Below are positions 7,104-44,400 of a stretch of 64,000 nucleotides of DNA, in pieces (position 1 is the first letter of the stretch; each line of letters opens with the position of its first letter). Under the pieces are notes generated by a model. The model had not been told where the DNA came from. It made no database searches and worked only from the letters and a program-made list of their open reading frames with translations. Source of the DNA: a bacterium (lineage in GTDB: Bacteria; Patescibacteriota; Dojkabacteria; SC72). The stretch is taken from assembly GCA_021463465.1 (NCBI GenBank), contig JAJTYH010000003.1, forward strand, positions 351,942 to 415,941. Reading direction: 5' to 3'. The translations under genes were made by a program, and so were the position numbers.

Positions 7104-7257
7104 TGATATGATACAGATAAGCGACCAAGGGTAGTGAAAGCTTGGAAAACATATGTGACTCAAACAATTGAAAACCAAGTGGTTGTACGAATGTACAGCA
7201 ACTGGGGTGGCACCGCGATAATAATCGTCCCCTTGTAAGTAGGGGATTTTTTATTTT
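7104..7257 (+). promoter_or_regulatory. T-box riboswitch leader of aspS (extended -10 promoter, stem I, T-box sequence, intrinsic terminator)
   Basis: An extended -10 TGaTATGAT lies at 7104-7112. The T-box sequence ACTGGGGTGGCACCGCG at 7201-7217 fits the consensus AnnnGGGUGGnACCGCG; its UGGC bulge would pair with the NCCA end of a tRNA whose discriminator is G, as in tRNA-Asp. The terminator is TCCCC-ttgtaagta-GGGGA plus a T-run at 7228-7257, only about 12 nt before the aspS start. A GAC (Asp) triplet sits in the upstream hairpin loop at 7157-7159. Confidence 0.75.
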
Positions 7258-7268
7258 AATTTATTTGT

Positions 7269-9161
7269 GTGAAAAACATGGAACGTATATATACAACACA
7301 GACGTTAGAGAAAGTTGGAGAAAACGTTAAGCTGGCTGGTTGGGCTGAAACTGTCCGAAACCACGGCAAAATTGTCTTTATTATGCTTCAAGATATTAAA
7401 AGTGTTATTCAATGTGTCGGTGGCGAAGAGTTGCAGGATGTTTCGGAAGGATATGTTATTGAGATTGAAGGTAAAGTTAAAGAACGTCCTGAAAAAATGG
7501 TAAATAAAGGGATTGAGACAGGTACAGTTGAGGTTGAAGTCACCTCGTGTAAAATTTTAGCCAAAAGCAAAGAATCACCAATTCCACTAAACACAACTGG
7601 TTATGAAATAAACGAGGAAATGCGTCTTAAGTATAGGTACCTCGACCTTAGAAGAAATAGGATGCGGAAGATTATTAAATTGCGCTCTGAATTCGCACAT
7701 GTTGTTAGGAATGAGTTTGTGAAGCATAATTTCATAGAAGTTGAAACTCCTATGTTAGCTAAAGCTACAAAAGAAGGTGCACGCGACTTTATTGTTCCAT
7801 CAAGATACAACCCTGGAAAGTTTTATGCCTTACCTCAAAGTCCACAACAGTATAAGCAGATTCTTATGACAGCTGGTGTTGAGAGATACTTCCAGTTAGC
7901 AAGATGTGTCAGAGATGAAGATCTCCGCTCAGACCGTGGTTATGAATTTACTCAGATCGACTTAGAGATGAGCTTTGTTAATCGAGAAATGGTAATGAAC
8001 ACAACAGAATCAATCATCAAAGCCGCAGTAAATGCTGTTGGAGGAAAGATAAAGGCAGATCCATTCCCTGTAATTGACTACAAGGATGCAATGAAGAAAT
8101 ATGGTGGTGATAAGTTTGACTTAAGGACTGACAAAGAGAAAGAAGAAGGGGTTCTAGCTTTTGCATGGGTAATAAATTTTCCATTTTTTAAGAAGGTAAA
8201 CAAGGAGGACAGTGCAGAGGTTGATGACGGCAAGAGTGGTTGGGTTTTCACGCATAATCCATTCAGTAGACCCACACCAGAATTTGAACAACAGCACTTG
8301 AAGGGCGAAAATCCTGGGGAAATTTTAACTACGCAGTACGACTTGGTTTGTAACGGATACGAAGTAGGTGGAGGTAGTATTAGAGCGCATGAACCAGAGA
8401 TGCTTCGTGCTACTTACGAGATTATGGGTTACAGTGAGCAAGAAATTGAAGATGGTATCGGTCATATGCTTAGAGCTTTCGAACTTGGTACACCACCTCA
8501 CGGAGGTATAGCTTTCGGATTGGACCGTTTGGTTATGTTATTGGCAAACGAAAGTTCGCTTAAAGAGGTAATAGCATTTCCAATGACTTCTAAAGGTTCA
8601 ACTGCAGTTATGGATGCTCCTTCCATTGTCCAGCAAAAAGATTTAGCTGCATTACATTTAGATGTCACTGACAAAGGTGACTGGGCGGTTAAAAGTATTA
8701 AAGCAAAGTTGGACAATTTGGAAATTAAGTATGACTATTTGGAGCATGCGGAAGTTAGAACTTCAGAAGAAGCTGCAAAGGTTAGAAATGTTCCTTTAGA
8801 ATACGGTGCAAAAGCTATGGTTTTAGCTTCAAAGGAGTATGAGAATAAGCTTGCAATGGTGGTTATACCTGGTGACAAACTATTGGATTTAGAGAAGGTT
8901 AAAAAGGCTTTGGGTGAAGAGTTTGATGTAGCGCCAAAAGAGTTAGTTGAAAAGCGAACTGGAATTAAAATGGGTGGAGTTCCACCATTCGGTAGACTGT
9001 TTGGGATTGAAGTTTACATGGATGGAAGCTTTTGGAGCAAAGAGAAATCAGCCTTCAATTGTGGAAGACGTGATGCTTCAATTATAATGAACGCTAATGA
9101 CCTTATTAAAGCCGTACAACCCAACAAGATTTCGGAAGGCTCAAGCTTCACCAAAGAATAA
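7269..9161 (+). CDS. aspS: aspartate--tRNA ligase (GAD-less, archaeal-like core) with C-terminal YbaK/ProX-type aminoacyl-tRNA deacylase domain
   Basis: Class II motif 2 is FQLARCVRDEDLRSDRGYEFTQIDLEMSF and motif 3 is GGGSIRAHEPEMLRA...PPHGGIAFGLDRLVMLL. Only about 160 aa separate them, so there is no GAD insertion. The C-terminal roughly 160 aa (about 8676-9161) carry KAMVLASKEYENKLAMVVIPGDKLLDLEKVKKALG...RTGIKMGGVPPFG, close to YbaK (KTLLVAVNGD...LAVAVTPV...LDLKKVAKALG...GYLVGGISPLG). The track start GTG 7269 has an alternative at ATG 7278. Confidence 0.92.
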   Translation: MKNMERIYTTQTLEKVGENVKLAGWAETVRNHGKIVFIMLQDIKSVIQCVGGEELQDVSEGYVIEIEGKVKERPEKMVNKGIETGTVEVEVTSCKILAKSKESPIPLNTTGYEINEEMRLKYRYLDLRRNRMRKIIKLRSEFAHVVRNEFVKHNFIEVETPMLAKATKEGARDFIVPSRYNPGKFYALPQSPQQYKQILMTAGVERYFQLARCVRDEDLRSDRGYEFTQIDLEMSFVNREMVMNTTESIIKAAVNAVGGKIKADPFPVIDYKDAMKKYGGDKFDLRTDKEKEEGVLAFAWVINFPFFKKVNKEDSAEVDDGKSGWVFTHNPFSRPTPEFEQQHLKGENPGEILTTQYDLVCNGYEVGGGSIRAHEPEMLRATYEIMGYSEQEIEDGIGHMLRAFELGTPPHGGIAFGLDRLVMLLANESSLKEVIAFPMTSKGSTAVMDAPSIVQQKDLAALHLDVTDKGDWAVKSIKAKLDNLEIKYDYLEHAEVRTSEEAAKVRNVPLEYGAKAMVLASKEYENKLAMVVIPGDKLLDLEKVKKALGEEFDVAPKELVEKRTGIKMGGVPPFGRLFGIEVYMDGSFWSKEKSAFNCGRRDASIIMNANDLIKAVQPNKISEGSSFTKE

Positions 9162-10086: not shown

Positions 10087-11405
10087 AAGAATCCAATCCC
10101 AGTATCTTCCTTAGGGACTTCTTGTTCCGCAATCTTGTTTTTCACTAGATTGTAATCTATCGCTGGTACATAGTAGTGGAAAATTCCTACGACTCCAGTA
10201 CTTAATGTAGCCTCACCTGAAATAATATATACAGGTTGCAAGAACTTGGCTTCGGTTTGCGGTTCATAATAACCTAAGGTTATGTTATATATTCTGAAAC
10301 TGCTGACCTTACGAGGTATGTATGTAGCAACATCGTCCCCATTTTTCTCATTGAGATATATCAAACTACCCTTACCTTGTTGCACGGTTTCTAGTGCAGT
10401 TTGGGGAGGAATCAGTTGATAAGTGCCACAAGCTTGTGGGTCGATAGGCCAGTAGGTAAAGTCAGCTCCGTAAACGTACCTGGCGTTGGTATCTTGGGTT
10501 TTGTCTCTGTCATTTTTAGGGCCAATGTAGACTGAGATATTGGGATGGTTTGGGTCTTGGAATGCAACGATAGTATCGAAATTGTATATATCGATTCGTC
10601 CTTTATCTGAAAGAATTGAGTCAGTAGTACTTTTGAATAGCTTCTTTTCCAAACTGTCTCGAATACGTTTAGCATCCTGCAGGTCACTTCTGACGGAAAT
10701 TAAAGGCTTCTGCCGATAAAAGTCTACTCTGAGTAATTCTGCATCTGCTCTGGATCTGGCCTGAGTGTAGGTGCCGTTTGGTTGGATATTTATGTTAACG
10801 ACTTTTGGGGTGATTTTGAAATAATCTTCAAATAACAATCCTTTGCCTCTTAGATAGTTAGAAGCTAAGTTGATAGCTTCGTTTTCGTTAGGAAGAGCAC
10901 TACTGTTATCGATTGCACCAATACGTGTGAAATCAGTTCGTAGTTGGAAGTTTAAATTACGGGCTTGAACAACTAGGGTTCTAAAGTTCTTAGAGTCATA
11001 CCATATGTACTCTGCACTACCTCTGCGCTGAAGTAGGTTTGGGTTGAACCCCAGTTTCTCTGCAATGATTTTTGATTCTCCTTGTGCATTAAGTGATTGC
11101 CCAGGGATACTAAATTTGTGTGTATTAACAACTCTGGGTAATGAGTCAACTTGACCTGATTGTGTTTCTAGTTCAAAGACTAAGTCCGAACCAGCGGCAA
11201 GTGAAAGAGAAGGGATTTCAAGTTTATTTTTCAAGAAATCATCGCGGAGTTCAGTACATGCGTAGTTAGGAGTGAGGAAGTCTCCTGGATCCTGTGTAGC
11301 ATTGAGTGCCAATATTACAGTCACAGCAATGATCATGATTACCAGACCGATACCTCCAATCACTCCGAAACGTTTTGTCCAGTGGGCTGCCTCAGTTAAA
11401 GTCAT
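10083..11405 (-). CDS. hypothetical N-terminally membrane-anchored extracytoplasmic protein
   Basis: 440 aa. The N-terminal TM is FGVIGGIGLVIMIIAVTVILAL. There are no recognisable catalytic motifs. Confidence 0.5.
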   Translation of the reverse strand: MTLTEAAHWTKRFGVIGGIGLVIMIIAVTVILALNATQDPGDFLTPNYACTELRDDFLKNKLEIPSLSLAAGSDLVFELETQSGQVDSLPRVVNTHKFSIPGQSLNAQGESKIIAEKLGFNPNLLQRRGSAEYIWYDSKNFRTLVVQARNLNFQLRTDFTRIGAIDNSSALPNENEAINLASNYLRGKGLLFEDYFKITPKVVNINIQPNGTYTQARSRADAELLRVDFYRQKPLISVRSDLQDAKRIRDSLEKKLFKSTTDSILSDKGRIDIYNFDTIVAFQDPNHPNISVYIGPKNDRDKTQDTNARYVYGADFTYWPIDPQACGTYQLIPPQTALETVQQGKGSLIYLNEKNGDDVATYIPRKVSSFRIYNITLGYYEPQTEAKFLQPVYIISGEATLSTGVVGIFHYYVPAIDYNLVKNKIAEQEVPKEDTGIGFF

Positions 11406-11447
11406 GGTATAATCATAGCAACTGATTACTTAGTCTTCAATCGACTT

Positions 11448-13004
11448 ATGCAACAAAGATTTAGGGCCGCACCAAGCCCTACAGGTAAGGTTCATATTGG
11501 TACTATTCGAGCATATTTACCTAACTTTTTGTTGGCCAAAAAGTATGGGGGAAAAAATATATTGAGAATTGAGGATACTGATCAGACTAGGCTAGTACCA
11601 AATGGAGTTGAAGCTATGATTGAAGCCTACGAAGAGGTGGGTATTTCCTTTGATGAAGGTCCCCACAAAGAGGGAGATTTTGGCCCGTATATACAATCTC
11701 AAAGACTCGATATTTATAAGAAATATGCTCAAGAGCTTTTGGATAATGATTATGCTTATTACTGTTTCTGTACTAAAGAACGCCTTGAAGAATTAAGGGA
11801 AACCCAAAAAGCAAATAAACAGAAACCAAGATACGATGGATTTTGTAGGAATATAGACAAGAGTGAGGCATTGAAACGGGTTAATGATGGGGAAGCACAT
11901 GTTATTCGAATGAAGTTTCCCCAGGAAGGTGGAACTGTTTGTCATGATCTTATATTTGGTAAAGTGAGCGTAAAAAATAGTGATGTAGAGGATCAGGTAT
12001 TAATGAAGGCCGATGGTTTTCCAACTTATCATCTAGCAGTTGTTGTAGACGATCATTTAATGGGAATAACCACTGCAATTCGAGGAGTAGATTGGCTCCC
12101 AAGTTTCCCTAAGCATGTAAAACTTTATGAATTCTTTGGATGGGAACTTCCCAAATTTGCACATTTGCCATTAATACTTAATCCAGACGGTAGAAAGAAA
12201 CTAAGTAAAAGGCATGGAGCTTTTCCAGTCAGTCAGATCTTGAGAAAAGGATATTTAAAAGAGGCTGTAATGAACTATGCCATGTTGTGTGGGTGGTCTC
12301 CAAAACCGGAGCTTGCGCATCAGGATGAGATTTACACTGTAGAAGAATTAATAAAACTGTTTGATTTGGATAGAGTTCATAAAACGGCTGCTCGATACGA
12401 TCAGGCTAAATTTGATTATATTAACTCTAAACATATTAGACGTCTTACCATTGATCAGTTTTCAGAAAGGATTATTGATTGGGCAAAGAGATATGTGATG
12501 CGAAGATTTATTAGCGATGAGTACACCGAAGCAGCGGAGTGGGAAGCAGAAGTAAAAAGTTTTGTAGAGAAGTATCTACCTTTATGGGAGAAAGACTTGG
12601 AGTATTTCAAGCGAGCTTTAGCACTCGAGCATGAAAGGATAACGGTTTTATCCGAGGTTCCTTCTGCTTTAGACTTTTTCTATGAGAAAGAATTAAGTTG
12701 GGAGGATAGTGATTGGAATACCAAGAATCATACTAAGTCAGAATTGGCTGATGCTTTAGAAAAGCTGCTTCCAAGATTAGAAGAAATTTTCAAAGGAAAT
12801 CAGTTTGACCATGAAGCATGGGAGAAAGTTGTCAGAGGATTAGCGGATGAATTAAACTGGAAACATGGAGATATGTTCATGGCGGTAAGGTCGGCTACAA
12901 CTGGTCGTTTACAGAGTCCTCCACTACTTGAAAGTTTTGAAATTATGGGTTGGGAGAAAGTAAAAGCTTTTGTAGAGCAAGCCATTGTTTGGTTGAGAAA
13001 ATAG
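11448..13004 (+). CDS. gltX: glutamate--tRNA ligase
   Basis: HIGH-type motif PSPTGKVHIGTIRAY and KMSKS-type motif KLSKRHG, with class I GluRS architecture. An extended -10 TGgTATAAT lies at 11404-11413. Confidence 0.92.
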   Translation: MQQRFRAAPSPTGKVHIGTIRAYLPNFLLAKKYGGKNILRIEDTDQTRLVPNGVEAMIEAYEEVGISFDEGPHKEGDFGPYIQSQRLDIYKKYAQELLDNDYAYYCFCTKERLEELRETQKANKQKPRYDGFCRNIDKSEALKRVNDGEAHVIRMKFPQEGGTVCHDLIFGKVSVKNSDVEDQVLMKADGFPTYHLAVVVDDHLMGITTAIRGVDWLPSFPKHVKLYEFFGWELPKFAHLPLILNPDGRKKLSKRHGAFPVSQILRKGYLKEAVMNYAMLCGWSPKPELAHQDEIYTVEELIKLFDLDRVHKTAARYDQAKFDYINSKHIRRLTIDQFSERIIDWAKRYVMRRFISDEYTEAAEWEAEVKSFVEKYLPLWEKDLEYFKRALALEHERITVLSEVPSALDFFYEKELSWEDSDWNTKNHTKSELADALEKLLPRLEEIFKGNQFDHEAWEKVVRGLADELNWKHGDMFMAVRSATTGRLQSPPLLESFEIMGWEKVKAFVEQAIVWLRK

Positions 13005-13033
13005 TTTGAAGATAATATAATTCTCGTTGCTAT

Positions 13034-13104
13034 TGCCAGGTCGTCTAATGGTAGGACTACGCTCTCTGGAAGCGTGTATCTTAGTTCGAATCTAAGCCTG
13101 GCAA
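13034..13104 (+). tRNA. tRNA-Gln (anticodon CUG)
   Basis: The cloverleaf was folded by hand. Acceptor is TGCCAGG/CCTGGCA (U1:A72, as is typical of bacterial tRNA-Gln). D arm is GTCT-AATGGTA-GGAC. Anticodon arm is ACGCT-CTCTGGA-AGCGT, giving anticodon CTG. T arm is CTTAG-TTCGAAT-CTAAG. Discriminator is A. Confidence 0.85.
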
Positions 13105-13126
13105 GATGTTTTAACGTTTAAAACAC

Positions 13127-21315: not shown

Positions 21316-22278
21316 ATGAACGAGCAAAGGTTACTTGAGGCCGCAGTTATTGCATCAGTTGTCCCATCGTACTGGACAGGTTGGTCGGTGGATGAGATTA
21401 GAAAGATAATTCATGGCGATATTGCACCAGATGGAGGGCATAGCGGTATTGAATATTTCCATGATGAAGGACATTTGGCTGCAAAGGGAATTTCAGGTTA
21501 TATGCCTATTGGAGGCTCAAGGATTTATCCAGAAGTTGCTGCAATTTTAAGATTGTACGCAGATCGAGAGATGCCTGAGTTAATTAGAGGAGCCGAATCT
21601 GTGGTTGAATTCGTTAAACGAAAGTTTATGAGGGACATGTCTATTGCCAGGTTCTCTCCTGCATTTAGTGGTCACAGCTACAACACACGAGACCCTTGGT
21701 TTGTTGATATTTATAACCTCTTGATGTGTAAGCCTGAGGTGGATACTGGTGAGAAATCCATTGTAACAGATTTTCTTGAAGGTTACTTTGCCTATATGAA
21801 GTTGCAAGGGGCTCATTATCCGTATAACTCAGAAATAAAAAATTATGCATTAGTACGCTGTCTAATGAATAGGTATGGTAGTAAAGTAAGGGTTTTGGGT
21901 AAAGATCGTTTAGATCGTCCAATTAAGGTAAGAATTGGGAATGGTAAAGCCTTTAATGTTGTTGAAAAAGATGTTAACTATCTTGAGACAGCTTTTTATG
22001 GGGCAGTTTTTTTAGCAGGGTATTTGGGAGGTGATAACTCCTCAGAGCTGGAGAATCTAACTGAGGAGAAACAAAGGTTTGCGTTTGAATTAGGTTTGAA
22101 GTTGACGGAGATGATGGCAGATAACTATAGAGGGAATGAGCGACAAAGGAGACCTGATATTTATGCTTTAGGAAAGTATATTCGAGAGCGTTTATCGAGG
22201 AGCTCTGGGTATGAAGTTGATTGGAATGGTATGAATAGATATGCCCGTATTCACATGAACTTGTTAGAGAACAAGTAA
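21316..22278 (+). CDS. hypothetical protein
   Basis: 320-aa ORF with good coding composition and no motif recognised. Confidence 0.5.
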   Translation: MNEQRLLEAAVIASVVPSYWTGWSVDEIRKIIHGDIAPDGGHSGIEYFHDEGHLAAKGISGYMPIGGSRIYPEVAAILRLYADREMPELIRGAESVVEFVKRKFMRDMSIARFSPAFSGHSYNTRDPWFVDIYNLLMCKPEVDTGEKSIVTDFLEGYFAYMKLQGAHYPYNSEIKNYALVRCLMNRYGSKVRVLGKDRLDRPIKVRIGNGKAFNVVEKDVNYLETAFYGAVFLAGYLGGDNSSELENLTEEKQRFAFELGLKLTEMMADNYRGNERQRRPDIYALGKYIRERLSRSSGYEVDWNGMNRYARIHMNLLENK

Positions 22279-22299
22279 CATTAGATTTAATTACATCGT

Positions 22300-22540
22300 A
22301 GTGGTGTGATATAATGTCTGGCAATACTTTGACCCAGCTATCACTGGTGAGTATCAGGAAGAAATCTAAAAGAGAGTAAAACCTGACGGAGAGCTTCCGA
22401 AACCACAAGCGAAAACCATACAAATGTGTGGTTAAGTGAAAAGTGAGGGTGGTACCGTGTACTACTTCAATGAATTTGAAATTACACCCCTCCATACTGT
22501 ATAGATTTAGTATCTATGCAATACGGAGGGGTTTTGTTTT
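22300..22540 (+). promoter_or_regulatory. T-box riboswitch leader of ileS (extended -10 promoter, T-box sequence, intrinsic terminator)
   Basis: An extended -10 TGaTATAAT lies at 22307-22315. The T-box sequence GTGAGGGTGGTACCGTG is at 22443-22459; its UGGU bulge would pair with an ACCA 3' end, as in tRNA-Ile (discriminator A). The terminator is CCCCTCC (22487-22493)...GGAGGGG (22525-22531) plus TTTTGTTTT (22532-22540). An ATC (Ile) triplet is present in the stem I region (GAGTATCAGG). Confidence 0.75.
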
Positions 22541-22558
22541 AACTTTACAATTACAAAT

Positions 22559-25438
22559 ATGTCCAAATTACAAAATGTAGATCCAAAGCATGATTTTGTA
22601 GCTATGGAAAATCGTCTACTTAAATGGTGGGAGGAGCAAGGGATACTGACTCAGTACATGGAAAAGAATCGAAAATCGAAAAAGAAGTTCGGTTTTATTG
22701 ATGGACCAATCACCGCTAATAATGAGATGGGACTTCACCACGCTTGGGGTAGAACCTACAAAGACTTAGTAAGTCGTTATAAAAACATGCAGGGCTTCGA
22801 GCAGCGTTTCCAGATGGGTTTTGACTGTCAGGGACTTTGGGTTGAGGTAGAAGTTGAGAAAGCACTTGGGTTTAACAGTAAGAAAGACATTTTCGATTAC
22901 GGTATGGATAAGTTTGTGAATGCTTGTAAAGACAGAGTATACAAATATTCAAAAATACAGACAGACCAATCAGTTAGATTGGGAATGTTCATGGATTGGG
23001 AGAACTCATACTACACAATGTCAGAGGAAAACAATCTTTACATCTGGAACTTCTTAAAGGTATGTCAACAAAAAGGATTGTTGTATAAGAGCCACTCATC
23101 GACCACTTGGTGTCCACGTTGTGAGACAGGTTTGTCTGAGCATGAAAAAGCTGATGGATACGCTGATATTGTTGATACTTCGGTCTACGTGAAATTCAAG
23201 GTAAAAGGTAAGGAGAATGAGTACCTTTTAGCTTGGACTACCACACCTTGGACTCTATCAGCAAATGTGTTGTTAGCTGTACATCCTGAACTTGAGTATG
23301 TCAAAGCCAAAGATGGAAATAGTACATACTATCTTGCGGCTAAACCTGCGGGAAAATTAGGTTTTAAAGATGTAGAGAGTGTAGATGTCAAAACCTTGGT
23401 TGGTATGAAATTTGAATCCCTTTATGATATCCCAGCACAGGAAGGCGTTGACCACTATGTAGTTGAGTGGGATTTAGTATCTGAGAATGATGGGTCAGGA
23501 ATTGTTCATATCGCACCAGGGTGTGGTCAGGAAGATTATGAGTTGGGTATGGAATTAAAAGTCCCTGCATTGTCACCGTTGGATGAAACTGGTCACTATA
23601 TGAATGGGTATGGTGATTTAACAGGTAAGTACGCCCATGACGTGAAAGATGAAGTCATATCCTATCTTAAGTCCGAAGGTTTATTGTTTAAGACCGAGGA
23701 TTACAAGCATACCTACCCTCACTGTTGGAGGTGCAAGACAAAGTGTTTGTTCCGGTTAGAAAACAATTGGTTTATTAATATTAGTAAGATAAGAGAAGAT
23801 TTAAAGAAAGCCGCTAATGAAGCTAAATGGACCCCAGAATTTGGAGGAAAACGAATGCAAGATTGGCTGAGGAATATGGGTGATTGGATGATAAGTAGAA
23901 AGCGTTTTTACGGCCTTGCCCTTCCATTTTATGAGTGTGAATGCGGTGAGGTTACAGTAGTTAGCGGTAAGGAAGAATTGAAGCAATTAGCAACAGATCC
24001 AGGAAAGGTTGATAAGTTGGAAAGCATACATCGACCTTGGATTGATGAGGTCACTATCAAATGCCCGAAGTGCAGCAAAGAAGTTAAGCGTGTTGCAGAT
24101 GTAGGTGACTGTTGGCTAGATGCCGGAGTGGTCCCATTTTCGACCTTAAAGTATCTTGAAGATAAGAAATATTGGAAGAAATGGTTCCCAGGCGATTTCA
24201 TAACTGAAATGGTTGAGCAGGTACGTTTATGGTTCTACTCAATGTTGGTTTTTGGTGTAGTTATGGAAGATAAGGTTCCTTATAGAGTGGTGGTAACCTA
24301 CGCTGAAATGAGGGATGAGAATAACAATAAAATGAGCAAGACAAAGAAGAACTATGTGCCGTTTAATGAAGCTGCGGACAAGGTTGGGGCAGATTTAATC
24401 CGTTGGAACTTCTGTCTTTCACCGTTTGGTAAGAATGTAAGATTTGGTTGGAATGTAGTTGAAGATGCTAGGCGTCAATTCTTATTGCCATTCTGGAACA
24501 GCTATTCATATTTTGTGACTTATGCAAATATGCACAGTTGGAAGTTTGATCCTAAATTTGATGCTAGCAAACTGACGAATATAATGGATCGATGGATTGT
24601 AGCCAGATTAGGTAAACTAGTAGAAGAAGTCACCAATGACATGGACCAATACAGTTTCTACGGTAGCGCAAATAAGATGCAAGCGTTTGTTGTGGACCTT
24701 TCCACTTGGTATATTCGACGTAGTCGAGATCGATTTAAAGTAGGCAATAAGGATGCCCTTAATACTCTCTATTTTGTTCTTGTAGAGCTTAACAAGATGC
24801 TTGCGCCTTTTGTTCCATTTGTGACCGAGGAGATGTATCAAAATCTAGTGGTCAATGGTGGAAATAAGGATGCTAAGATGTCTGTACATTTGGAAAGTTT
24901 TCCTGAGGTAAAGGAAGTTGATGAGAAGGTGCTTGAAGATATGGAGGTGGCAAGGGGAGTGGCATCACTTGGTCTTAAGGTTCGAGATGAGAAGCGATTA
25001 AAATTACGACAACCTTTGGCTAAAGCTTATGTTAATCTTAATTCAGAAGAGCTTAAAGAACTTGTAAGATTGGAGCTGAATGTGAAAGAAGTGGAGAGTA
25101 GCGAGAAAGCTCAGCAAGGAGAAGGAATGGTGATGATGGAAGGCAATGGATACTTTGTCACTCTGGATACTAATTTGACTGAAGAGCTAAAACAGGAGGG
25201 TTTGTACCGTGAATTGGTAAGGCAACTACAGGATTTGAGAAAACGTAATGGATTACAGGTAGGACAGCAGGTAGCAGCATTAATGTACAGTGAAAGTAAG
25301 GAAGTCGAGAATTTGGTAGGTAAATTTGATTCAGAATTAAGGCAGGATGTAAGCCTTTCTGATATAAAATTTGCCAAAAACGATGGTGAAAGTGTAAACT
25401 TTGACTCGTTTGATGTTAATGTTACTTTTGAAAAATAA
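22559..25438 (+). CDS. ileS: isoleucine--tRNA ligase
   Basis: HIGH-type motif MGLHHAWG and KMSKS motif NNKMSKTKKN. The CP1 editing domain and anticodon-binding region are present. 959 aa. Confidence 0.96.
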   Translation: MSKLQNVDPKHDFVAMENRLLKWWEEQGILTQYMEKNRKSKKKFGFIDGPITANNEMGLHHAWGRTYKDLVSRYKNMQGFEQRFQMGFDCQGLWVEVEVEKALGFNSKKDIFDYGMDKFVNACKDRVYKYSKIQTDQSVRLGMFMDWENSYYTMSEENNLYIWNFLKVCQQKGLLYKSHSSTTWCPRCETGLSEHEKADGYADIVDTSVYVKFKVKGKENEYLLAWTTTPWTLSANVLLAVHPELEYVKAKDGNSTYYLAAKPAGKLGFKDVESVDVKTLVGMKFESLYDIPAQEGVDHYVVEWDLVSENDGSGIVHIAPGCGQEDYELGMELKVPALSPLDETGHYMNGYGDLTGKYAHDVKDEVISYLKSEGLLFKTEDYKHTYPHCWRCKTKCLFRLENNWFINISKIREDLKKAANEAKWTPEFGGKRMQDWLRNMGDWMISRKRFYGLALPFYECECGEVTVVSGKEELKQLATDPGKVDKLESIHRPWIDEVTIKCPKCSKEVKRVADVGDCWLDAGVVPFSTLKYLEDKKYWKKWFPGDFITEMVEQVRLWFYSMLVFGVVMEDKVPYRVVVTYAEMRDENNNKMSKTKKNYVPFNEAADKVGADLIRWNFCLSPFGKNVRFGWNVVEDARRQFLLPFWNSYSYFVTYANMHSWKFDPKFDASKLTNIMDRWIVARLGKLVEEVTNDMDQYSFYGSANKMQAFVVDLSTWYIRRSRDRFKVGNKDALNTLYFVLVELNKMLAPFVPFVTEEMYQNLVVNGGNKDAKMSVHLESFPEVKEVDEKVLEDMEVARGVASLGLKVRDEKRLKLRQPLAKAYVNLNSEELKELVRLELNVKEVESSEKAQQGEGMVMMEGNGYFVTLDTNLTEELKQEGLYRELVRQLQDLRKRNGLQVGQQVAALMYSESKEVENLVGKFDSELRQDVSLSDIKFAKNDGESVNFDSFDVNVTFEK

Positions 25439-38434: not shown

Positions 38435-41400
38435 ATGCTAAGAAAGTTATTTAAACTCCCCAAGAGATATTTTTCTCGATTTATTTCTATTTATCTTGCA
38501 CTTTATCTTACAGTAAGTCCTGCATTAGCCTTCGCAACTACGGAAGGGCTTTTGGTGGATGAAGGCGCTCAAAGTACACCTGTAGTAGCGGAAGAAGAGA
38601 CGGTGCAGACTCCTGAGCCCACAGTCGAAGAAGAATCATCAGAAGTTACGCCTGAACCAGAAGTTGAACCTGAGGTTGTACCGGAGCCAAAGGTAGATGA
38701 ACCTGAAAATGATGAGGTTGATGTAGACGTAGTTAAGTCAGCGGATGGCGAACTTGAAGTTGGTGTGATTGAAACTACACAGTGTTTGGAAAACTCTCTC
38801 AACCCTTGTATTGGAACAGATAAGGAAGATTACGCACCGCATGAGGTAGTTACGTTGAGAGGCCATGGTTACTTACCAGAAAGTCGATACCTACTCATTA
38901 TTACTTCAGCTAATCAACCTCCTGTACGTTTTGAAGCTGAAATTATTACAAACAGCATTGGTGGTTTTAATTACAGTTATCAATTGGATGGTAGATATCG
39001 TCCTGATTACGCAGTAGAGGTTAGGAGTTTGCTCGGTGATATTATTGCAACAGATACATTTACTGATAGTCGTACTATCAATTCTGCTACAGTGAACGGC
39101 GTTGCGAGTATAACCGTCGCTCAGGGTACAACAATATTAGGTGGGGTTAACGTTTCTACAAATGGAAGTGGAAATAATGATGATTGGGCAAGTACGGGAT
39201 GGAGAATCTCTACAAGTGCTCCTGGTGGAGTTAGTTGTGATAATTTCGAGCCCGACATTACCGACGATGTAATGGGTGCTACTAAAGCCTTTAATATGAC
39301 AGCTCCTAATACACCAGGTATTTATAATGCATACTTTATTGCTTACAACAACGATAGTTGTAGCGGTGGAGCAAGTGCAGTCTACGTTCTTGAAAATGCT
39401 GTTACAGTGACAGGACCTGATCTTACAATTTCAAAAAGCAATGATGTAGGAGGTGTTGTAAATGTTGGAGGCTCATTTAACTGGATTATTACGGTTAAAA
39501 ATGAAGGGACTTCATCTGCCATCTTTAACAATGAAGATATTTTGTCGGACTCATTACCAAATGATGGGGTATCGTTTGTTGATACAAGTGATTTGGTAGT
39601 AACAACTGCGGGGGGAGTAACTGGTTCTATTGATTGCGATATTAACAGTAGTACACTTGTTTGCGACGATAACAGCGGTGGCTCTACAGTTGTAATTCCT
39701 GCTGGCGGTTCGTTTACTGTTACAGTCGAAGTGATTGCAAATGAAATTAGAACTTTATCTAACCCAAGAAAAGGTGGAAAGTGTGAAGTTGACCCAAATG
39801 AAGAAGTCGCTGAACAAAATGAGCATAATAATAAGTGTAATGACTCAGTGAAAGTTAACCCAGATACTGGAGTTACTAATCCACCGTTAGGACAATTTTG
39901 TGGCTTAGACATTGCTCTTGTTCTTGATAATTCTACAAGTATAAGCTCAGGAGAGTTGACTCAGATGAAAGCTGCAATGACTGCGTTTACATCCGCATTC
40001 AATGGTACACCTACCGAGTTTTCCGTCTCAAGATTCGCCACTACTGCATCGGTCGTTCAATCATTTACTTCCAATATAACTGCAGTTAACGCTGCAATTA
40101 ATGGAATTCCTTCAGGCGGAGGGTATACAAACTGGGAAGATGGTTTATTTAAAGGTCAAAGTACTTTGACAAATAGACCTACATACCCTGATTTGATGAT
40201 TTTTGCTTCCGATGGTAATCCAAATAGGGTTGATAACGGTACAGATGCAAGTGAGTCGCAAGCAGTAAGCGAAGCTAAAATCATTGCAAATAACATAAAA
40301 ACTGCAGGGGTGAGGATACTTGCACTTGGGATAGGTGATGAGCTGGATACACCTAATCTACAGACTATCTCTGGTAATAATGTTAATACTGGTATTAGTT
40401 CTGATGTTATAACTTCGGACTTCGCGACCCTTGCTGCCGATTTAGCTGATTACGCTATTCAACTTTGTGGAGGAACTATTAATGTAAAAAAATTGGTTGA
40501 CGGTAATCCTGCTGCTAACTGGGTATTTACTATTGATGGTGATCAGCATATTACAGGAGCTGATGGCTTTATCCCTTCAGTTGAAGTAGATAATGGTACT
40601 TACAGTGTAGTTGAGACTCCAAAGAATGGATTTACATTCCAATCTGCCGTTTGTACGATCAACAATCAGTCAGTAGGTTCACCGATTACTAATGGCGTAG
40701 GAGCAATCTCAGTAGATTCAAACGATATTGTGACCTGTACATTTAACAATATTACGAACGCATTCTGTGGCGATGGAGTTGTGAACCAGCAGTCCGAGCA
40801 GTGTGACAGTGGAGCTTCCAATGGTATTGCTTGTACTCCAACTTATGCTAACAGCTGTAATTACTGTAGTAACACCTGTCAAACCGTGAATATTCATGGG
40901 CCATACTGTGGTGATGGAATCAAGAATGGTCCTGAGCAGTGTGATGGCTCAGATGGTGTATCTGGGTCTGATTTCGCATGTACACAGAGTTGTGAGTTGG
41001 ATTTGGTTGAAAAGAAAGTAATGATCTGTCATGCGACAAGTAGTAATACTAATCCTTATGTCTCTAATGAACCTGCTAAATCAGCTGATGTAGCGGGTCA
41101 TGATGGCCATAATGGACCAGTTTGGTCTGCAGGAATTGATGGCGATTGGGGAGATATTATACCTCCGTTTAATTATGTAGGAGGTTCATATCCAGGCAAG
41201 AACTGGACAGCTGAGGGTCAAGCGATTTGGAATAATCAATGCGAAATTGAAAAGGGAACTATTGTTGTACAAAAGACCACTGTACCAGCAGGCAATCAAA
41301 CCAACTTTGATGTTTCTATAACTGGGGATGGATATATTTTTGAAAATGATAAAGGTACTGTAAGTGATTCACAGGATCACTCATTTATCGTTGAACCAGG

Positions 41401-44400
41401 AACTTATTCAGTTGAAGAGGATGCGGTTTCAGGCTGGGAAATTACGGGCAATACCTGTGATGATGTTACAGTTGCAAACGGAGAGACTAAGTATTGCCAG
41501 ATTACTAACACTAAAGTAACTGATGTGTCAATCACAAAATCGGACACACCTGATCCAGTATTAACTGGTGGTTTGTTGACTTATATTGTGACGATTGAGA
41601 ATGAAAGTGATACTAATGCAGAGAATGTTGTAGTAACCGATAACCTTCCTGCCGCATTTATGGCCATTTTCTCGGTAATACCAAGTCAGGGTTCATGTTC
41701 AGATACAACCCTTCCTTCTCCTGTGGTTTGTGAACTTGGAACTTTAGCTGCAGATGCCAGTGCCACAATTGAAATTAAAGGCTTAGCTTTTGGCATAGGA
41801 AGTATTGAGAATAATGCTTCAGTTACAACTTCGACTTACGAGATTGATTTGAAAGATAACACTACCGTTGAGGATACGACTATTGTAGATCAACCATCAG
41901 CGTGTGTTGAAGGCCAGAGATGGGCTAGTAGTGTAGTGAGTGCTTCGCAAGGTTTGCAAAAAGATGGATCGACCGTACTTTTGTCCCGCAGTGTACCTGC
42001 GAGTGCGATTGGTTTACCTGATGCTGCCACTAATCCTGATACAGGCTTTTATAGTTTAGGTAAGGGTGGTTCTATCGTGGTGGCGTTCACCTCACCAGTT
42101 GTTAACGGTGAAGGTACAGACATTTCAATTCATGAAGTGACTAATGGAAGAGAGAATTACCCTGAAGAAACCGCAAGTGTAGAGGTCAGTACGGACAATG
42201 GAGGAAGCTGGCACAATGTAGGTAGTGCATCAAGTTTGTCCACTAATGGTGTGACTTTGATTGATATAGCACCTTACACAGGTGTAACGCATGTTAGAGT
42301 GACTGATACTACTAACTTTAACCTCAATCCAAATTCGAATGCTGATGGATTTGATTTGGACGCAGTTGATGTCGACTGTAAGGCTTCTATAACCGTGATT
42401 AAAGATGTTGATATCAATGGTGATGGACAAGTTGATAAGACTAATTCTACTGATTGGGCTTGGGATATCAATGGAAGTGGTAATTATGAGACTGGAAGCA
42501 AAGTAGATGTCCAACCTGGATCATATGTGATTTCTGAAAGCCAGAAGCCTTCATACCATGTAGTTTCCTTAGTTTGTGGTCAGACTAACTACGGTGCAGT
42601 TGAGAGTCAGCAGATAAGCGTCTCGGAAGGTGAAGAACTTACTTGTACTTTTACTAACAGTGTCGATACTGGTTCTGTGAAAGTTAACAAGAGAGTTGAT
42701 CTAAATGGTGATGGAGTGTGGGGAGGTGGAAATGAGAATAGTAAGGCATATATCAGCTCCCTTGGATTTAGCTGGACTTTAGATGCAGTTGGTTCAATTA
42801 ACTTCGGCGATACCGTTACTCCTGTAATCACAGGTGCTCATCAAGTGAATGAGAATAGTCTCGAAGGCTACCACTTTGTTGCATGGTATGTAACGGGTGA
42901 AGAGGGACGTTCATGCACAAATCCTAATGGAACAACCGTACCTGTTGATATTAATGTCGTGAAGAACTCAACAGCTGAAATCACTTTGTGTAATGCAAGG
43001 GATATGGGTCAAATTACTATTGTTAAGGATTCAGTTAACAATGATGGAAAAGACTTTAACTTTTCAACTAGTACTTTGGGGTCATTTATATTAGATGATG
43101 ATGGTAATAATGGAAATCAGCACTCAAATACCAAAGTGTTCAATGTACCTTCGGGAGCATATTGGGTACGTGAGAATAGTGCCTCGGGCTGGAAACTGAC
43201 TGATTTGGTTTGTATCGGAGATGACAATTCTGTTGTTGATATCGAAAATCGAAGAGCTGATTTAGACCTAGATTTGAATGAAAATATTACCTGTACCTTT
43301 ACCAATACTAAGTTAGCAGAGATCAAGGGAACGAAGTTCAACGATCGAAACGGTGATAATCACCAAAGCTTACTCTCAGGAGAGACTTGGATGAACGGCT
43401 GGAAGATTTTTATTGATGAAAATCACAATAGCAGTTATGACACTGGAGAACTTACAGATACAACCAGTGGTTGGTTCTTTATGGATTTAGGAAAGTATGA
43501 TTTCGAGGGTTTGTTACCGGGAACTTATACGGTTTGTGAACAAATGCAAGAAGGTTGGTATGCCTCAGGTCCAGTCTGTCGTGAGATATTACTTGAGCCA
43601 GGTGATAGGAAAGAGGTGAATTTCGGTAATCACCAATCGCTAAGAATTATCGCTTCAAAGATTGTCTGTAACAGTGAAGATGACTTACCTAACTGGGGAA
43701 GTGGAGCAGGTAATATCAATTCAAATACTGCAACCAATTTCGTTGCGAATAACCCAGATTGTCAGTTAGTTTCTGACTGGCAGTTCCAGTGGGGATATGA
43801 TGGTGAAGTAGATAAGTACGGTAATGGAGACCAGTTAGGTTTGGCTCCGGAACCATGGCAGATTCTTGGATCGACGGATGCTAGTGGTGTAGCTGACATT
43901 GAGATTATGACAACTCCTGAAGGAAAAGGACTTAGTAACTTGTGGGTACGTGAGAGTTTAATGCCAGGGTATGTGGCATTCAGTTATCCACCAGCACAAC
44001 CTGAAGAAAATCCATACTCGGCTGAAATGTATTGTCACAAAGATGTCCTTTATTATGACAATTTTGATCGAATTGAAGAGGTAAAGTTTGGTGAGACCTA
44101 TTACTGTGTAGCCTTCAATGCTCTAAAGACTGGTGATATCACCGTTACTAAAGAGGTTGTAGATCCAGATGGTAATCCAGTTGAAGATACATCTACTCTC
44201 TTTACAGTGAATCTTAATGAAAGCAATCCACAACAGCTTACTGATGGTCAGTCAGTGGTTTACGGTGACTTGCCAATCGGTACATATACCGTGACTGAGG
44301 ATCCATCCGGAAACTATACTTTTGATAGTTTCGAAGGGGATGAAAATAGCGAAATAGAAGGAGCGCAGGTTACGGTTACTGAGGAAGGTAATACTAATGT

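Follow-up and report, generated by a model that had tools for sequence, protein, structure and literature searches.

The described systems closest to the locus reported here are the leaders of actinobacterial ileS genes, which are reportedly the subject of work by Sherwood from 2015 on Nocardia farcinica and Mycobacterium tuberculosis/smegmatis. What first drew attention to the ileS T-boxes of Actinobacteria was precisely that they have no terminators (PMC1262725). Four T-box classes are distinguished by Suddala et al. (2023). In Classes I and II, which generally control transcription, Stem I is long and bears the elbow-binding IDTM. Class III, exemplified by N. farcinica ileS, lacks the IDTM; its Stem I is short, its specifier loop is apical and measures 5-6 nt, and its Stem II is obligatory. 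Members of Classes III and IV are described as "mostly" controlling translation, a wording that leaves room for known exceptions (PMC10482949). In N. farcinica ileS, the duplex of the codon A16-U17-C18-A19 with the anticodon is clamped by the S-turn purines G37-A38-A39 and G67-U-A69-G70-A71 (PMC7583486, section 4.1). Zhang's review holds that T-boxes acting on transcription "generally require" the IDTM if they are to capture the tRNA fast enough (PMC7583486, section 6.2). The underlying idea is kinetic: a co-transcriptional switch needs the elbow platform to catch the tRNA before the polymerase reaches the terminator (PMC7583486).

T-boxes have been reported from Firmicutes, Actinobacteria, Chloroflexi, Deinococcus-Thermus and a few delta-proteobacteria (PMC2494555). 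The short-Stem-I model of TBDB was run only on Actinobacteria and on class I matches with a truncated Stem I (PMC7778990). A full-text search combining T-box with Candidate Phyla Radiation (CPR) or Patescibacteria returned nothing; the earlier primary T-box literature may mention such cases or a terminator-type Class III.

The leader described here lies upstream of ileS in a stretch of 64,000 nucleotides of bacterial DNA, referred to as the window. Judged from its sequence and that of its relatives, it is very probably a tRNA-Ile-sensing T-box riboswitch that combines a Class III decoder with an intrinsic terminator and acts by transcription attenuation. It is a real and conserved T-box and is almost certainly functional.

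Organization of the ileS locus

The region 22307-22540 on the plus strand comprises an extended -10 promoter, a T-box leader of 170 nt and an intrinsic terminator, and ileS starts 18 nt further downstream. The following features were assigned, with the basis of each assignment in brackets.

22307..22315, plus strand: extended -10 promoter TGATATAAT (sequence read; positional conservation in relatives)
22324..22354, plus strand: short Stem I, 31 nt in total (anchored parse of 22 leaders)
22340..22343, plus strand: specifier codon AUC (Ile) and purine A in the apical loop (parse of 22 leaders)
22355..22385, plus strand: Stem II (covariation; stem seen in the unconstrained folds of most leaders)
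22387..22410, plus strand: Stem IIA hairpin CGG(22387-89)-AGAGCUU-CCG(22397-99) with a candidate IIB pseudoknot (pairing tested against shuffles)
22414..22433, plus strand: hairpin AACCAUAC-AAAU-GUGUGGUU at the Stem III position (in every fold of the leader)
22445..22492, plus strand: discriminator, i.e., antiterminator (high-confidence part of the RF00230 alignment; covariation)
22487..22540, plus strand: predicted intrinsic terminator, consisting of a 45-nt hairpin at 22487-22531 and the U-tract UUUUGUUUU at 22532-22540 (folding, relatives)
22559..25438, plus strand: ileS, the regulated gene, 959 aa, type-2-like IleRS (TIGR00392)

The elements listed in the first-pass annotation, namely GTGAGGGTGGTACCGTG (22443-22459), the CCCCTCC...GGAGGGG terminator, TTTTGTTTT (22532-22540) and TGATATAAT (22307-22315), were all recovered where it had placed them. 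The ATC triplet, which it had located in the 5' hairpin region, occupies 22340-22342 and belongs to the loop of hairpin one.

In 18 of 22 related leaders, the extended -10 box is situated 4-9 nt 5' of the C-helix of Stem I; a conserved -35 element is lacking. With 6 occurrences against 4.1 +/- 2.0 expected, the promoter motif TGNTATAAT is not above chance in the window, which is AT-rich; the significance of the box thus comes from its conserved position in the relatives and not from the motif count. Due to this position next to Stem I, the RNA should start essentially at Stem I, with transcription predicted to begin at about 22321-22323.

The ileS ORF matches TIGR00392 with 724.9 bits (cutoff 621.4). 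The best solved relatives of the encoded protein are 8c8w (626 bits) and the T. thermophilus enzyme 1ile (547 bits), with 301 bits for S. aureus 1ffy. By this sequence comparison the IleRS of the window is type-2-like, being closer to 8c8w and T. thermophilus 1ile than to S. aureus 1ffy. An ORF of 173 aa on the minus strand (21974-22495), which overlaps the leader, was rejected as a gene due to the lack of a family match and of conservation of the open frame. Neither the window nor 27 fetched loci yielded a tRNA-Ile gene when searched.

Distribution of the leader among IleRS relatives

A scan of genomes with the IleRS protein yielded 78 loci. The closest of these (60-75% identity) belong to metagenome-assembled genomes (MAGs) of Candidatus Dojkabacteria and candidate division WS6, followed by Shapirobacteria, WWE3, Staskawiczbacteria and DPANN archaea. 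On the basis of these relatives, the host is placed in the CPR/Patescibacteria and is most likely Dojkabacteria-like. The first-pass annotation had pointed out that the finding would deserve attention in an organism outside the Firmicutes and Actinobacteria, and this is where the IleRS relatives, near Dojkabacteria/WS6, locate it.

In total, 22 leaders, that of the window and those of 21 loci, were found alike by an exact-motif scan, an nhmmer profile and a covariance model. Where the leader-bearing loci are named, they belong to Dojkabacteria/WS6 and, in one case, to WWE3 (L075); the others carry generic labels such as "uncultured Candidatus Saccharibacteria". The leader was not found in the Shapirobacteria, Staskawiczbacteria, Nealsonbacteria and archaeal loci that were scanned. 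It is also missing from some Dojkabacteria-like ileS loci (L003, L008, L077) and hence appears to be dispensable in some lineages.

Decoding half of the leader

Stem I of the window consists of the C-helix AUAC(22324-27)/GUAU(22351-54), a 3-nt bulge (UUU) and a tandem G.A (GA 22331-32 / GA 22349-50), which together give a K-turn pattern, and of a 4-bp upper stem, CCAG(22334-37)/CUGG(22344-47), closed by the 6-nt apical loop CUAUCA(22338-43). All 22 leaders show the K-turn pattern: a C-helix of 3-4 bp, a bulge of 3 nt and tandem GA. Pairing is maintained through compensatory changes both in the C-helix (UAC/GUA, CAC/GUG, AGC/GCU) and in Stem I above it (CCAG/CUGG, CCGG/CCGG, GGAG/CUCC, AGAG/CUCU). 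The two helices of Stem I are 82.5% and 98.8% paired, respectively, and 6 of their 8 pairs are changed on both sides. The apical loop measures 5-6 nt and contains AUC in all 22 leaders; the base that follows is A in 21 of them and U in L009.

The base helix of Stem II, CAGG(22355-58)/CCUG(22382-85), is 98.8% paired across the family, with covariation at 3 of 4 pairs. It is followed by an internal loop of the S-turn type, AAGAAA(22359-64) opposite GUAAAA(22376-81), and by a short upper stem UCU/AGA. In the family this loop reads AAGAAA opposite (A)GUA(G/A)A, and the G-A-A and U-A-x-A positions are invariant in the 20 distinct rows of the alignment.

In the candidate IIB pairing, GCUU(22393-96) in the loop of the IIA hairpin faces AAGC(22407-10). 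For the window this pairing of 4 bp is not significant by itself, as it is matched or beaten by 24% of shuffles. Summed over the family, a value of 81 was obtained against 64.5 +/- 3.4 for shuffles, none of which (0/500) reached it. Among the ACGR-type leaders the partners covary (UGUA/UACA, GGCA/UGCU, UAGUAA/UUACUA, AAUCUU/AAGAUU), and the WWE3 leader has a IIB pairing, GCUU/AAGC, identical to that of the window. The pairing finds no support in one subclade (L004-type), and the per-sequence values for L002 and L064 are not meaningful, since the automatic picking took the wrong IIA hairpin there. The K-turn, the S-turn and the pseudoknot are putative three-dimensional motifs, recognized by their sequence patterns.

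The hairpin at the Stem III position is separated from helix A1 by an 11-nt purine-rich linker, AAGUGAAAAGU, a wider spacing than other subclades have. Covarying homologues of this hairpin occur in L034, L002, L009 and L012. Across the subclades, one, two or no hairpins precede the T-box (none in L064 and L014). Its equivalence to the canonical Stem III is uncertain, because other subclades have a different or second hairpin nearer to the T-box.

Comparison with described T-box classes

The decoding half shares many features with the Class III ileS leaders of Actinobacteria. Common to both are the regulated gene, the codon AUC followed by a purine in an apical loop of 5-6 nt, the short Stem I without IDTM, the K-turn, the S-turn purines (GAA / GUA-R-A), the IIA hairpin with candidate IIB pairing, UGGU and an insertion in A2. 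The S-turn residues of N. farcinica are the same ones that are invariant at equivalent positions in the CPR leaders. The two groups differ in the host, which is a Dojkabacteria-like CPR bacterium here, and the likeness is one of architecture rather than of sequence alignment. They further differ in the 3' part, where the actinobacterial leaders have a sequestrator of the Shine-Dalgarno sequence (SD) and the leader of the window has an intrinsic terminator with a U-tract and no SD near the start codon. Of the Class III traits, the short Stem I without IDTM, the 5-6-nt specifier loop and the Stem II with K-turn and S-turn were found, and the usual Class III mode, SD sequestration, is not matched.

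With the Class I T-boxes of Firmicutes (B. subtilis tyrS type; RF00230), the leader has in common the attenuation logic with a terminator that is stabler than the antiterminator, the T-box core, the K-turn, Stem II with its S-turn, the IIA/B region and the regulation of an aminoacyl-tRNA synthetase (aaRS) gene. It differs from them in that the long Stem I, the specifier internal loop, the AG bulge and the distal-loop elbow platform are lacking, the 31-nt Stem I ending in an apical loop instead of the IDTM of Classes I and II, and in that the terminator hairpin is unusually long (45 nt).

With the class set by the published descriptions, the ileS leader reads as a decoder of Class III combined with a terminator platform of the Class I type. 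Its co-transcriptional function is not self-evident, because the IDTM that the reviews deem necessary for it is missing.

Discriminator, terminator and mode of control

The discriminator is composed of helix A1, GAGGG(22445-49)/CCCUC(22488-92), the 7-nt T-box bulge UGGUACC(22450-56) and helix A2, GUGUA(22457-61)/UACAC(22483-87), which holds an insertion of 21 nt. A1 is 89% paired and A2 100%, and both covary (A1: AGGG/CCCU, AAGG/CCUU; A2: GUG/CAC, GCG/CGC, ACG/CGU). UGGU is present in the bulge of 22/22 leaders and would pair with the 3' end ACCA of the tRNA. The sequence AGGGUGGUACCGUG at 22446-22459 agrees with the 14-nt T-box consensus AGGGUGGNACCGCG (PMC11297988) at 13 of 14 positions, and the single mismatch is compensated, since GUG/CAC covaries with GCG/CGC in A2.

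The outer stem of the terminator hairpin is formed by CCCCUCC (22487-22493) and GGAGGGG (22525-22531). As the hairpin takes the whole 3' strand of A1 (CCCUC), terminator and antiterminator are mutually exclusive, and the alternative antiterminator fold presupposed in the first-pass annotation does exist, with a dG of -11.5 kcal/mol under constraint against -24.7 kcal/mol for the terminator hairpin. The MFE fold of the full leader includes the terminator hairpin (z = -4.98). A simple terminator scanner did not report the hairpin of the window, because its stem is long and imperfect. All 22 leaders have a terminator hairpin that overlaps the 3' strand of A1, with a U-rich tract directly after it. 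The dG of this hairpin ranges from -22 to -33 kcal/mol, with the exception of the WWE3 leader (-9), and that of the constrained antiterminators from -5.6 to -12.5 kcal/mol; the terminator is 2-4 times stabler in 21 of the 22. The hairpins measure 41-70 nt in 21 of the 22 leaders.

The 3' hairpin could also be read as a sequestrator that blocks ribosome binding, which would make the leader a translational Class III T-box as in Actinobacteria. The decoding half is indeed built like that of the translational actinobacterial ileS T-boxes (PMC10482949, PMC7583486), in which A2 insertions such as that of 21 nt found here are frequent, the literature deems T-boxes without IDTM suited to translational control, and the 3' arm GGAGGGG of the hairpin looks like an SD. 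However, the G-richness of this arm is forced by its complementarity to the conserved CCCCU, and the arm ends 27 nt before the ATG (22-68 nt in the relatives), which is too distant for an SD. Of the 19 spacers checked, 18 are AU-rich and devoid of an SD-like motif, as is the one of 27 nt in the window, and the start codon is never located within the hairpin. A small ORF of its own separates hairpin and ileS in L015 and L072, and in L075 a gap of 389 nt is found there. Together with the U-rich tract in every leader, these observations render a translational mode improbable. The predicted hairpin with its U-tract and without a sequestrable SD is the signature of transcription attenuation and not of SD sequestration.

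Covariance models and covariation

The first-pass annotation had implied that a standard T-box could be confirmed with the Rfam model RF00230. This was not borne out: at gathering thresholds, Rfam reports only two tRNAs and no T-box in the window. Read to the letter, a failed covariance-model search, which the first-pass annotation had named as counting against its reading, is what this threshold gives. In permissive mode, RF00230 matches 22320-22494; the score of 26.8 bits (gathering score 93) corresponds to an E-value of 3.5e-4 on 401 nt and of 0.056 on the whole window. The alignment spans model positions 1-219, and its discriminator half has a high posterior probability. The low score results from the replacement of 76 Stem I model positions, including the tRNA-elbow platform, by 6 nt, and the canonical Stem I is absent. 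By the Rfam criterion, the ileS leader is thus outside RF00230; in biological terms, it is a T-box, but its class is one that the model does not cover.

For this reason, the outcome of a covariance-model search depends on the model. The model R1, which was built from 15 relatives with the window left out, matches 22323-22492 with 98.6 bits (E about 3e-20), the sole strong match in the 64 kb, followed by the aspS leader with 21.8 bits. Over 87 sources, R1 detects exactly 22 leaders, each lying a short distance before ileS or before a small ORF that ileS follows. The search therefore succeeds decisively once the model represents the short-Stem-I architecture.

For the analysis of covariation, the helix registers were set by flanking conserved motifs and not by best pairing. 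Whole-leader MAFFT alignments proved dependable only at the two ends, so anchor-defined and Infernal alignments were used. In the anchor-defined alignment, which is gapless and comprises 73 columns and 20 distinct leaders, 93.3% of the cells pair and 13 of 20 pairs show double changes, values reached by 0 of 500 shuffles; slid registers give only 26-55% paired. The Infernal alignment is 97.2% paired, with double changes at 14 of 18 pairs. The T-box leader on ileS that had been proposed, with its AUC specifier, its UGGU bulge and a terminator competing with the antiterminator, is supported.

These data also bear on the idea that the leader is a decaying or non-functional T-box remnant in a reduced genome, or a constitutive terminator or attenuator that no longer senses tRNA. 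Such decay would be in line with the score below the family threshold, with the absence of the elbow contact considered essential for transcriptional function, with the related ileS loci that lack the leader and with the reduced genomes of CPR bacteria. On the other hand, the family is conserved down to about 47% IleRS identity and in two candidate phyla, every helix is kept by compensatory changes, and AUC, UGGU and the S-turn purines are invariant. Moreover, a strong terminator that is never relieved would be lethal in front of an essential gene. Decay or loss of sensing is consequently regarded as very improbable.

A canonical Class I T-box whose long Stem I scores poorly through sequence divergence alone, as RF00230 being the sole relevant Rfam match (model positions 1-219) might suggest, is extremely improbable, since there are only 8 nt between the -10 box and the C-helix and a Stem I of 31 nt has no room for a specifier internal loop, an AG bulge and a distal loop, the Rfam alignment deletes the 76 model positions mentioned above, the specifier occupies a 5-6-nt apical loop in every leader, and no conserved sequence is found upstream of the promoter box in the relatives.

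A second T-box upstream of aspS

The 64-kb window holds two copies of the T-box core GGGTGGNACCGNG, one in front of ileS and one in front of aspS, compared to 0.02 copies expected from shuffles. The core that had been noticed in front of aspS is located at 7204-7234, with the bulge UGGC, in a leader (7104-7258) that matches RF00230 with 45.7 bits, again below the gathering score. Like the ileS leader, it has an extended -10-like box (TGATATGAT), a T-box core, a terminator and a reduced 5' domain. Unlike the ileS leader, it carries UGGC in the bulge and a short terminator of 17 nt, and it is barely detected by the covariance model of the ileS leaders. The promoters of the two leaders had been described as matching. 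Both are good extended -10 boxes, but a special link between them does not follow, since the motif is a generic consensus.

In bacteria, the discriminator base is A73 in tRNA-Ile and G73 in tRNA-Asp. The bulges UGGU (ileS) and UGGC (aspS) fit these expected discriminators. A metagenome scan for aspS relatives yielded 8 loci with one further aspS T-box (L080), which has a tiny hairpin with GAC-A in its loop. The window has a third aaRS gene, gltX, which leaves no space for a leader and gave no T-box match. Within the 64-kb window, two of three aaRS genes (aspS and ileS, not gltX) therefore carry the core.

Proposed mechanism

From the sequence features, we infer tRNA binding, a charge-dependent switch and termination in vivo, which could proceed as follows. 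Transcription would begin a few nt past the extended -10 box, at the predicted start site. The nascent RNA would fold into the K-turn-based mini Stem I and display AUC-A in its apical loop. The K-turn would set Stem II alongside, and the S-turn purines would clamp the duplex of the codon with the tRNA-Ile anticodon, GAU; a IIA/B pseudoknot is likely to stack on this decoding unit. If the tRNA is uncharged, its 3' ACCA would pair with UGGU of the bulge, stack on A1 and hold the weak antiterminator, resulting in readthrough into ileS. With a charged tRNA, or none at all, the stronger terminator would capture the 3' strand of A1 and transcription would stop at the U-tract, 18 nt before ileS. Speculatively, the long terminator hairpins might buy time for tRNA capture.

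Implications

A tentative but real possibility is that Dojkabacteria and WWE3 hold an undescribed lineage of T-boxes, in which a Class III decoder free of elbow contacts drives genuine co-transcriptional attenuation. If this is true, the IDTM would be no requirement for transcriptional T-box function, and the kinetic window might instead be provided by the long terminator hairpins, by a slow or pausing RNA polymerase or by a higher affinity of the Class III anticodon groove. The combination of a short decoder with a terminator, a pairing that the reviews call disfavoured, would be a natural test of the kinetic explanation for the split between transcriptional T-boxes with a long Stem I and translational ones with a short Stem I. 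With its approximately 170 nt, the ileS leader may also serve as a compact template for engineering.

RF00230 at its gathering score under-reports T-boxes in candidate phyla, and standard Rfam thresholds would miss the ileS leader. On the above reading, the range of T-boxes would also reach into the CPR, which would agree with their origin in an early Terrabacteria-like ancestor or with a joint transfer with type-2 ileS, and tRNA-sensing attenuation would be present in CPR bacteria, whose gene regulation is little known.

A second T-box leader in the window

A second T-box lies upstream of aspS in the window, with an RF00230 score of 45.7 bits that remains below the threshold for this family. 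Its elements and the gene that follows are:

7104-7258, + strand, aspS T-box leader
immediately 3′ of the preceding ORF's stop codon, + strand, promoter-like box TGATATGAT
within 7104-7258, + strand, T-box core GGGG-UGGCACC-GCGAU...AUCGU-CCCC
+ strand, short terminator CCCCU-UGUAAGU-AGGGG with a U-tract on its 3′ side
7278, + strand, aspS start codon ATG
7278-9161, + strand, aspS, encoding AspRS (627 aa)

In the 5′ domain, CCAAG (7125-29), CUUGG (7141-45) and CCAAG (7175-79) permit two alternative pairings, and two GAC triplets are present (7122-24 and 7157-59). The only further aspS T-box found is located upstream of an aspS relative on the metagenome contig Ga0210057_1000824 (L080, 1290-1470) and carries a UGGC bulge. 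Its Stem I is tiny (GUCUG-CUGACAA-CGGAC), and the apical loop presents the Asp codon GAC with an A as the next base. This suggests that the short-Stem-I design in these bacteria extends beyond the ileS leaders.

Terminators and downstream genes

The terminator hairpins of the ileS T-boxes are unusually long, with 41-70 nt in 21 of the 22 leaders (the window hairpin at 22487-22531 and those of 21 related loci), whereas the aspS terminator of the same window comprises 17 nt. Speculatively, the long hairpins may extend the time for tRNA capture. In two Dojkabacteria loci (L015, 2660-3000, and L072, 2650-3000), a small ORF is located between the T-box terminator and ileS, so that the T-box would govern a unit of two genes. 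This ORF likely encodes a membrane protein and contains the motif DLIPEA(I/L)LP(V/L)IG.

Neighboring genes and reading frames

A tRNA-Gln gene is found 3′ of gltX in the window:

11405-11413, TGGTATAAT box before gltX, inside the 42-nt intergenic gap
11448-13004, gltX
13033-13105, tRNA-Gln(CUG)

In 11 related loci, a tRNA-Gln(CUG) gene is also found upstream of ileS, at a distance of 1-2.8 kb, which suggests that the local synteny is conserved. On the minus strand, an ORF of 173 aa (21974-22495) overlaps both the ileS leader and the gene upstream. This frame has probably arisen by chance, since the family search gave no match and the open frame is not kept in relatives. Elsewhere, a single ORF of 2644 aa occupies 38435-46369 (+).

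AspRS and IleRS

At its C-terminus, AspRS has a YbaK/EbsC-like deacylase domain that covers residues 483-619 (TIGR00011, E = 4.8e-15). The match to its metagenome relatives is confined to residues 1-466, and judged from these sequences the fusion may therefore be lineage-specific. The IleRS of the window (22559-25438) is type-2-like. Among loci L042-L071, its relatives from DPANN archaea (Nanoarchaeota, Woesearchaeota and Aenigmatarchaeota) share 41-50% identity and are interleaved with CPR sequences, which hints at an inter-domain transfer of the type-2-like ileS.
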